From the IMG/VR virus record IMGVR_UViG_3300006052_000013: 45,764 bases of DNA; one strand, given 5' to 3'. The notes under the pieces are model-generated. The model was given only the letters and a program-made list of their open reading frames with translations, searched no databases and was not told the origin of the DNA. Source of the DNA: a virus. Positions 26,971 to 27,097 of the stretch are shown piece by piece; the stretch's first letter is position 1; every line of letters begins with the position of its first letter. The position numbers and the translations under genes are program-made.

Positions 26971-27010
26971 TTTTTGAAAAATATGCCCGGCCCAGTTTCC
27001 TGGGCCGGGG
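26971..27010 (-). terminator. intrinsic terminator closing the small-ORF array
   Basis: RNA sense CCCGGCCCAG-GAAA-CUGGGCCGGG followed by CAUAUUUUUCAAAAA. Confidence 0.65.
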
Positions 27011-27097
27011 TTTGCTGTATGACACGGGAACAACCCCGTGTCTGTTCGGAGAGGAACAACAGCAAAATCATAGTACACCGATTACGGTCTGGTGTAC
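27011..27097 (-). ncRNA. candidate structured small RNA or 3' trailer with an anti-SD loop
   Basis: No ORF with an SD. Hairpin GUACACC..GGUGUAC, then a 3-way junction UUGCUGU/ACAGCAA enclosing UGUUC-CUCUCC-GAACA and GACACGGG..CCCGUGUC. Bounded by JH copy 1 and the terminator. Confidence 0.3.

Follow-up and report, generated by a model that had tools for sequence, protein, structure and literature searches.

As far as described systems are concerned, the small RNAs of Gram-positive bacteria that carry C/U-rich loops, such as RsaE/RoxS, LhrC and the loops of RNAIII, pair with Shine-Dalgarno (SD) sequences, and in Staphylococcus aureus the icaR mRNA holds a 3'-UTR anti-SD motif that pairs with the SD of its own 5' UTR. 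In phage T4, the protein endonuclease RegB shuts off early mRNAs at GGAG. In this study, we investigated an element at the 3' end of a long minus-strand gene array in a viral DNA of 45,764 nucleotides (IMG/VR record IMGVR_UViG_3300006052_000013), the whole of which is called the window here and which, judged by its gene content, is part of a phage genome.

Like RsaE/RoxS, LhrC and RNAIII, the element has a pyrimidine-rich apical loop beside a terminator and a 6-12-nt complement to the SD and start regions of many mRNAs, from which a block of initiation would be expected. It is unlike them in being phage-encoded, in having no sequence or structural homology to them, in having the extended-SD genes of its own operon as predicted targets, and in being no free-standing gene but part of that operon's 3' end. 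As in icaR, a 3' UTR carries the anti-SD, and the sequences it complements are ribosome-binding sites of the same transcript; here, however, one anti-SD faces about 17 sites over 17 kb of a polycistron, and its motif lies within a conserved three-way junction and may be released as a separate RNA. The element also recalls 3'-UTR-derived small RNAs, as it lies past the last stop codon, shares the terminator of the mRNA and could arise by processing, though its candidate processing site is a twister-like motif and not an RNase E site. RegB is a functional analogue, being likewise a phage-encoded device aimed at the SD of early genes, whereas the effector proposed here is an antisense RNA loop and not a protein endonuclease. 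Comparatively, the motif 5' of the RNA matches P2, L1 (GAGGG...UAA) and P1 of the type-P5 twister (RF02684), yet the copy at 27128-27078 and 33 other copies are without L4 and score below gathering. The element most likely works like the SD-targeting C/U-rich-loop RNAs of Gram-positive bacteria and the icaR 3'-UTR anti-SD, an action predicted by analogy. By the searches given below, it is not homologous to any described family, and neither an element of this kind nor an array of ribozyme half-sites turned up in the literature searched; the conservation of the element, as read from the alignments, is new here.

The operon end and the fold of its RNA

The minus-strand array covers about 18 kb, from about 45270 to 26977, and holds about 42 small genes, most of whose proteins have no annotation; a sigma-70-family protein is encoded among them. 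A sigma-70-like promoter site (TTTTCA-17-TATAAT, 45300-45272) is followed by a 1.3-kb ORF-less leader, and a single strong minus-strand terminator stands at the end of the array, no other having been found in it. Because of the one promoter-like site, the ORF-less leader and the single strong terminator, the array was treated as one operon, which is probably an early operon. Downstream of the terminator are encoded a C5 methylase, a T4 Rnl1-type RNA ligase and an Acb2/Tad1-like protein, together with SNF2 and other helicases, a primase and a DNA polymerase. The element is non-coding; it follows the last stop codon and precedes the terminator of the operon. By sequence reading and folding, the untranslated RNA spans 27100-26977 on the minus strand and passes from a hairpin through a three-way junction to the terminator, with the following features:

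27129-27127, minus strand: stop codon of the last array gene (sequence)
27127-27096 (27129-27098 as a feature with the stop codon), minus strand: junction motif copy 1, ACA/GAGGG-CCACGGG-UAAA-CCCGUGG-UAA/UGU
27124-27120, 27119-27102 and 27101-99, minus strand: GAGGG, hairpin and UAA of the junction motif, followed by UGU
27097-27073, minus strand: hairpin H1, GUACACC-AGACCGUAAUC-GGUGUAC (MFE folds)
27066-27011, minus strand: three-way junction with closing stem UUUGCUGU/ACAGCAAA (MFE folds)
27058-54, 27053-48 and 27047-43, minus strand: arm 1 (anti-SD), UGUUC, CUCUCC and GAACA
within 27066-27011, minus strand: arm 2 of the three-way junction, GACACGGGG-UUGU-UCCCGUGUC
27059-27048, minus strand: putative anti-SD core UUGUUCCUCUCC (complementarity counts, unpaired loop)
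27018-27011, minus strand: second complementary block, within AUACAGCAA (cofold)
27009-26986, tail 26985-77, minus strand: intrinsic terminator stem-loop CCCGGCCCAG-GAAA-CUGGGCCGGG, then CAUAUUUUU

The minimum free energy (MFE) of the RNA is -61.7 kcal/mol (z = -6.9), none of 200 shuffles being as good, and the hairpin, the three-way junction and the terminator are all reproduced; a longer piece around the element gave an MFE of -77.6 (z = -7.7). The terminator stem displays 10 pairs, nine of them G-C, with a GAAA loop and the U-run tail CAUAUUUUU, and is the top-scoring terminator-like site on both strands of 25800-45764. The first-pass annotation had described this sequence and its coordinates as a hairpin plus a three-way junction before a strong terminator, all of which was confirmed by reading and by the MFE fold. 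Its exposed anti-SD loop was also recovered, as all six bases of CUCUCC have an unpaired probability of 1.00. The anti-SD core UUGUUCCUCUCC is made up of this hexaloop, the 5' half of the arm-1 stem and two bases of the closing helix. The same transcript presents CUCUCC as an apical loop at three places, 27053-48, 44181-76 and 44113-08. The two copies in the leader have just 6 nt of SD complementarity and their loops read CUCCUCC; the motif of leader hairpin 44194-44162 is again unpaired with a probability of 1.00, and in the twister P1 loop of the window the last three motif bases are unpaired at 0.85, 0.77 and 0.61.

The earlier statement that this stretch holds no plausible ORF stands, as no SD-preceded ORF and no Pfam match were found in it and the frames are not conserved. 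A 63-aa ATG ORF at 27071-26880 was considered and rejected, being without an SD, crossing the terminator and matching nothing in Pfam. A coding reading in general was rejected on the ground that the conserved bases fall in a different frame in the relative L127 described below; the ORFs overlapping the element lie in different frames in the window and in L127 and have no Pfam match. Rfam matched no family in the whole window at the gathering threshold, and at E<=10 on 26700-27300 it returned only the junction twister match and noise (STnc450, nrdJ and others, 14-18 bits). ARAGORN found no tRNA or tmRNA.

The motif on the 5' side of the RNA is one of 35 copies of N/GAGGG-(6-9 bp hairpin)-UAA/N on the minus strand between 27124 and 44135, with none on the plus strand, and over the 35 copies the flanking bases covary (C:G 25, A:U 6, A:C 3, U:G 1). 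Rfam aligns the copies to the left half (P2, L1, P1) of the type-P5 twister, always below the gathering score. The junction at 27128-27078 reached 29.7 bits with Twister-P5 (RF02684) against a gathering score of 37.6, and carries the L1 residues GAGGG and U/AA around P1, closed by P2. An L4 loop GUCCCAAGCC was not found in this junction, the Rfam alignment placing CCG-UAAU-CGG at P4; with two mismatches or fewer, GTCCCAAGCC occurs among the relevant sites only at 44021-44012 and 44606-44597. The first junction, 44139-44009, matches the whole model at 30.0 bits, with CCAG-UCCCAAGC-CUGG as P4/L4 and a Y element as P3, and the other 34, including 27128-27078, are without L4. An orphan P2-L2-P4/L4 half is also present in the leader at 44632-44594. 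The twister fold requires L4 for the pseudoknots T1 and T2, of which T1 joins L1 and L4 (PMC6154101), and by the tests applied the L4-less junctions are not twister members. By analogy, a twister-type cut would fall between U27101 and A27100, a candidate 5' end only; hairpin H1 begins 3 nt past this putative cleavage site and, by the alignment, is not conserved in L127. Junction hairpin copy 1 had been taken as the 5' boundary, and a hairpin is indeed there, but it is more than a plain hairpin, being a twister-like half-site without L4. The junction pattern gave one chance match in IMG/VR, in coding DNA, and among the matches listed for genome contigs at least about 120 were single-copy Collinsella sites and none had an array. 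The GAAGG junctions of the relatives did not match the twister model, and the L130-type junction pattern was not found in IMG/VR.

Complementarity to the ribosome-binding sites of the array

The 10-mer GUUCCUCUCC is located at 27057-27048 on the minus strand, and its complement GGAGAGGAAC occurs eight times on that strand. For the 9-mer GGAGAGGAA, 17 copies were counted on the minus strand, of which 16 fall in the array; the plus strand has a single copy, which is this element. The 10-nt perfect complement reported for the Y-element cassettes proved to be an exact GUUCCUCUCC/GGAGAGGAAC match, and the SD variant is array-specific. In a rough gene model of 42 array genes and 42 non-array genes beyond the terminator, at least 9 contiguous nt complementary to UGUUGUUCCUCUCC were found in 17 of the 42 array start regions and in one of the 42 others. 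Nine of the 42 array start regions carry a complement of at least 11 nt, with a maximum of 12 (GGAGAGGAACAA). When the 123-nt RNA was shuffled 2000 times with its dinucleotides kept, the mean was 0.45 targets and the maximum 15, so none reached 17; the next-best 123-nt segment of the sense strand in the whole 45.7 kb recorded five targets. The complementarity is far beyond chance. The predicted targets are as follows:

43989-27646, minus strand: 16 array ribosome-binding sites with GGAGAGGAA (motif matches and gene model)
27646, 28199, 28686, 30611, 32067, 32429, 33285 and 33762, minus strand: high-coordinate ends of these sites
34069, 34807, 37378, 39511, 41901, 42952, 43454 and 43989, minus strand: high-coordinate ends, continued

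What the complement faces is an extended ribosome-binding site, GGAGAGGAAC(AA), carried by about 40% of the array genes and by almost none of the downstream replication genes; genes past the terminator use ordinary AAGGAG or GGAGG as their SD. The extended SD GGAGAGGAA marks out this operon. A matching site is absent from the array gene for the sigma factor (SD AAAGGAGAA, start 30362).

With the opening of the RNA's own helices paid, cofolding gave a net gain of -5 kcal/mol or better in 23 of the 42 array leaders, compared with 6 of the 42 non-array ones. The best leaders were those of the genes starting at 42942 and 32419 (ddG -16.1 and -14.9 kcal/mol), where the pairing is bipartite: in these two Y-type cassettes a second block of the RNA, UACAGCAA, pairs in the cofold with UUGCUGUA, 3 nt upstream of the SD. 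The SDs of eight Y-element leaders are predicted to be accessible, since they are unpaired directly 3' of the three-way junction. For pairing, the arm-1 stem and the closing helix have to open, as they contain half of the 10-12-nt complement in the RNA.

Relatives and retuning of the loop

The phage has seldom been sampled: the protein of the downstream neighbour (26819-26196) has just four other 90% clusters among 5.8 billion proteins. Four independent phage lineages were compared, with L131 (2.8 kb) showing no such element. Four samples (L123-L126) hold near-identical copies, 100% identical across the element, and are hence uninformative. No match to 26000-30000 was obtained by BLASTN among 50,697 phage records, and an IMG/VR search for related loci with both flanking proteins found none. 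A five-member protein profile returned from IMG/VR the L122 contig again and nothing else, and the upstream 169-aa protein, used as a query for homologues, retrieved no protein but itself. The pattern of anti-SD and closing stem was not found in IMG/VR and gave two chance matches in metagenome contigs. Apparent differences in gene content among L132, L133 and L134 were set aside as differences in gene calling together with a change in tandem-repeat copy number.

The most informative comparison for the fold is with L127, where the neighbouring protein is 54% identical and the upstream gene and the junction motif are present. A 25-nt block UUUGCUGUUGUUCCUCUCCGAACAG and a 14-nt block CAUACAGCAAACCC are identical between L127 and the window, and the flanks are unalignable. 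All 32 of 32 pairs are kept in L127, nine of them changed on both sides, in arm 2 and the terminator stem, and all compensated; the closing stem and the anti-SD arm 1 are invariant, and six of the nine arm-2 pairs are changed on both sides. When the partners were slid by 1-3 columns as a control, only 30-48% paired. The terminator stem of L127 has three compensated pairs and its tail, GUCAAUUUCG, is a poor U-run.

In L130 and L122 the neighbouring protein is 55% and 49% identical, respectively, and both have the GAAGG junction variant and carry the loop on other scaffolds. L130 holds at 2925-3050 (L130a) a long ORF-less hairpin with apical GUUCCUCUCC (z = -8.7), which lies inside the array and has no terminator, and L122 holds at 2740-2850 (L122a) an ORF-less hairpin with apical UUCCUCU (z = -7.5). 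A second loop class (class B) is found just after the methylase gene, at L122 10570-10620 (L122b, apical loop GUUCUCUCCUU) and L130 9262-9312 (L130b, apical loop UUUCUCUCCUUUU). These loops follow the SDs of their own genomes. L130a complements UAAGGAGAGGAAC, up to 13 nt, at 11 ribosome-binding sites; L130b complements CUAAAAGGAGAGA, up to 13 nt, at the methylase and following genes; and L122b complements AAGGAGAGAAC, the commonest SD of L122. The complement extends on different sides among the phages, with the 11-13-nt match kept. The motif has an unpaired probability of 1.00 in L127 and L122b as well; partly paired motif bases are the first two of L130a (0.08, 0.12), the last two of L122a (0.11) and two of L130b (0.64-0.67). 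Moreover, G-U pairs give the gene-sense strand of L127 and L122 a fold that is more stable, by about 10 kcal/mol, than that of the complement.

The suspicion that the complementarity might be absent from related genomes was not borne out, for the motif is identical in L127 and recurs on the apical loops of L130 and L122. Of the terminator-bounded small RNA proposed at first, the terminator is present in this phage, but the L130 hairpin has none and the U-tract of L127 is poor. As aligned, the motif is conserved rather than covarying in three lineages, so the argument for pairing rests on the class-B variants and the differing extensions. Because of the retuned 11-13-nt matches and the better fold of the sense strand, the selected object, so far as the comparison indicates, is a sense-strand RNA stem-loop able to pair with ribosome-binding sites. 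Since the loop is exposed, the SD is array-specific and the motif is kept or retuned in the relatives, simultaneous pairing with many ribosome-binding sites of the array would be the best reading. The loop might also mimic the 3' end of 16S rRNA, as the first-pass annotation proposed; its context CCUCUCC has CCUC and CUCC and not the 16S anti-SD core CCUCC, and the second-class loops of the relatives (UCUCUCCUUUU) look more 16S-like.

Predicted action and its alternatives

With moderate confidence, and from sequence and folding evidence, we regard the element as a cis-encoded anti-SD regulatory RNA of the phage early operon. In the proposed mechanism, the exposed loop would nucleate on GGAGAG of the SD, and the duplex would then spread via the spacer to the start codon, over 9-12 bp, with the second 8-nt block adding pairing at two cassettes. 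Binding of the 30S subunit would be blocked, and the duplex may also flag the mRNA for decay. Coming at the very end of a long operon, and being far more structured than the mRNAs, the RNA would accumulate late and then act as a delayed negative feedback on early-gene translation. The effect is presumably repression and its timing late. A separate RNA species, arising through processing at the twister-like junction or otherwise, and action in trans are both part of what we infer. With one RNA per operon facing about 17 targets, the stoichiometry requires differential stability. The picture of a small RNA may be wrong, and the predicted element could act within the polycistron, because the element of L130 lies inside the array and lacks a terminator.

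Among the alternatives, the element might be purely a 3'-end module in cis, combining termination with protection from exonucleases, whose SD complement is the by-product of an inverted, decayed copy of a Y leader. When reverse-complemented, the 3' part of a Y-type cassette leader reads CAUGUUCCUCUCCUGGUACAGCAACAA; the element shares the architecture of the eight Y elements (closing stem, short arm, long arm) and sits directly on the terminator, and the reverse-complemented leaders of 32419 and 42942 carry its two blocks, GUUCCUCUCC and UACAGCAA, in the same order. In a relic, however, stretches of 25 and 14 nt would not stay identical amid the divergence of arm 2, the terminator stem and all the flanks. 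The 10-mer also recurs on the unrelated scaffolds of L130 and L122 without the UACAGCAA block, and the loop variants follow the local SD where a stabilizer needs no particular loop sequence, all of which leaves this explanation unlikely.

It is likewise improbable that the CUCUCC loop is a protein-binding or decoy site, for a pyrimidine-binding protein, a nuclease or a factor of the 16S 3' end. Such a site would suit the three apical copies of CUCUCC on one transcript, those in the leader having just the 6-nt SD complement, and the class-B loops UCUCUCCUUUU are similar to the pyrimidine tail in which 16S rRNA canonically ends, ...CACCUCCUUUCU. However, the complement in the window element, L130a, L130b and L122b runs to 11-13 nt, beyond the hexamer; a protein site does not predict extension on whichever side fits the local ribosome-binding site, and no candidate protein was identified.

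The pairing may be real and yet protective or activating, shielding GGAG sites from a RegB-like endonuclease or remodelling leaders, a reading that draws on the same complementarity. Cleavage within GGAG is known from phage systems such as T4 RegB; but in all well-studied cases initiation is blocked by a duplex over the SD and start codon, and no RegB-like gene was recognized among the proteins scanned, so that we see only a slight probability in this. A further reading, which we hold to be very improbable, is that the early transcript of about 18 kb is a self-processing array in which the 34 L4-less sites need a partner in trans and the anti-SD RNA is released by a ribozyme. That partner would be the leader half-ribozyme at 44632-44594 or the C/U-rich apical loops, and the terminal RNA, with a 5'-OH end, would shut off its sibling mRNAs. 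If true, this would be a natural split multiple-turnover twister and an operon-length translational timer, both without precedent.

We give very little credence to the C/U-rich loop being an RNA cofactor that pairs with the junction GAGGG in the manner of L4 and aids cleavage at the 34 L4-less junctions. The junctions do keep the twister L1 residues yet have no L4, T1 forms between L1 and L4 (PMC6154101), and the loop CCUC(U) complements (A)GAGG; in the relatives, the L122b loop CCUUC is the exact complement of the GAAGG of L122 and the L130 loops contain CCUU. Only 4-5 bp could form in this pairing, where the SDs offer 9-13 bp; nothing of the L4 consensus GUCCCAAGCC is present in the loop, and no natural split twister is known. 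Lastly, a DNA-level or plus-strand feature, that is, an inverted protein-binding DNA site or the SD of a plus-strand gene, is scarcely probable: the plus strand reads GGAGAGGAAC, a perfect SD, and in the window folds equally well, but it has no start codon 5-13 nt downstream and no conserved plus-strand ORF in L127, the gene-sense strand is more stable by about 10 kcal/mol in L127 and L122, and the compensated stems argue for a single-stranded structure.

The clustering of ribozymes near phage genes is a long-standing open question (PMC6765202). The twister-like half-site array bears on why self-cleaving ribozymes cluster near phage genes. As for the anti-SD regulatory RNA, temporal programmes of phages are mostly explained by transcription factors and protein nucleases, and to our knowledge few phage-encoded regulatory RNAs act on the phage's own genes. 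If the proposed action is true, it would represent a compact post-transcriptional switch, in which a private extended SD marks the early genes and an RNA at the operon end holds its complement, with a built-in delay that lasts as long as the transcription of 18 kb takes. Such a switch would select among genes, the sigma-factor gene in the array being without a matching site, and its motif is simple enough to be sought in other phages.

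Junction motifs and a candidate complete twister

It was observed that the junctions between the genes of the array harbor the motif N-GAGGG-hairpin-UAA-N in 35 intergenic copies, every one of them in gene sense (window 27124-44135, minus strand), and that the flanking pair, N before GAGGG and N after UAA, covaries among these 35 window copies. The window's motifs match the P2-L1-P1 half of a type-P5 twister, and the L4 loop, which is needed for the catalytic fold, is missing in 34 of the 35. GAGGG usually lies 1-3 nt 3' of the preceding ORF's stop codon in the window junctions; those of the related phage contigs L122, L130 and L131 carry GAAGG instead, and there the motif is often overlapped by the stop codon, or the stop codon lies inside the hairpin loop.

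Twister-like and CUCUCC-loop features of the window
44139-44009, minus strand: candidate complete twister (UGCA followed by GAGGG, P1, UAA followed by UGCG, P3 insert, P4/L4)
44130-44092, minus strand: P1 of this candidate, a CUCUCC hairpin with the motif in the P1 loop
44080-44030, minus strand: Y element inside the candidate
44194-44162, minus strand: CUCUCC hairpin in the leader
44632-44594, minus strand: orphan twister "right half" inside the ORF-less leader 45270-43980 (22.9 bits)

The element at 44139-44009, a short way 5' of where the array's first gene starts (ATG 43976), is probably a complete twister ribozyme. Its P4/L4 reads CCAG-UCCCAAGC-CUGG, the predicted cut falls between U44091 and A44090, and P3 holds an insert of about 85 nt that is itself a Y element; this insert is the probable reason why the score (30.0 bits) is below the Rfam gathering score.

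The leader and related contigs

The leader 45270-43980 (minus strand, 1.3 kb) is strongly structured, with no credible ORF found in it. Its orphan half consists of P2 (CCACUAC/GUAGUGG), L2 and P4/L4 (CAGG-UCCCAAGU-CCUG), and lacks the L1/P1 cleavage domain. The motif GUGAAGUCC is common to this leader and L122, where it recurs at 5190-5290, upstream of a 217-aa gene.

L122 also contains an ORF-less, G/U-rich region of about 750 nt (2850-3600) with repeated units (GGCAAAGU..GGUG..), immediately 3' of its anti-SD hairpin L122a. tRNA genes (10810-11250 and 7689-7760) follow its methylase-proximal anti-SD hairpin. A YrlA (Y RNA-like) match at L122 11126-11252 is weak (28.7 bits vs gathering 69). 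The 13-nt tandem repeat GGGGCAACCGCGCC (window 45720-45764, corresponding to 9860-9891 of contig L132) varies in copy number among otherwise identical contigs from different samples.

Protein genes in the window

A sigma-70-family protein with regions 2 and 4 is encoded within the array (29013-30362, minus strand); its gene has a GUG start and the SD AAAGGAGAA, in which the GGAGAGGAA variant is absent, and is therefore not a predicted target of the anti-SD loop. According to precomputed Pfam for the identical contig L123, an Acb2/Tad1-hairpin protein (22283-22669, minus strand), which belongs to an anti-CBASS/Thoeris sponge family, adjoins a T4 Rnl1-type RNA ligase, and an 851-aa protein (18149-20704, minus strand) carries an MVP_shoulder domain.

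Y elements and further CUCUCC loops

CUCUCC, within GGGACUCUCCUCC, forms the apical loop of two more hairpins, 44194-44162 and 44130-44092 (minus strand), and the canonical anti-SD core CCUCC is present in both. The Y elements are three-way junctions comprising a closing stem, a short arm with a GGAAA-type loop and a long arm.

Window genes with a Y element in the leader (gene starts)
28676
30601
32057
32419
34797
39499
42942

Directly 3' of the Y elements comes unpaired (A/C)CAGGAGAGGAA(C), and then the start codon. This architecture is common to the Y elements and the 3'-terminal RNA of the array.
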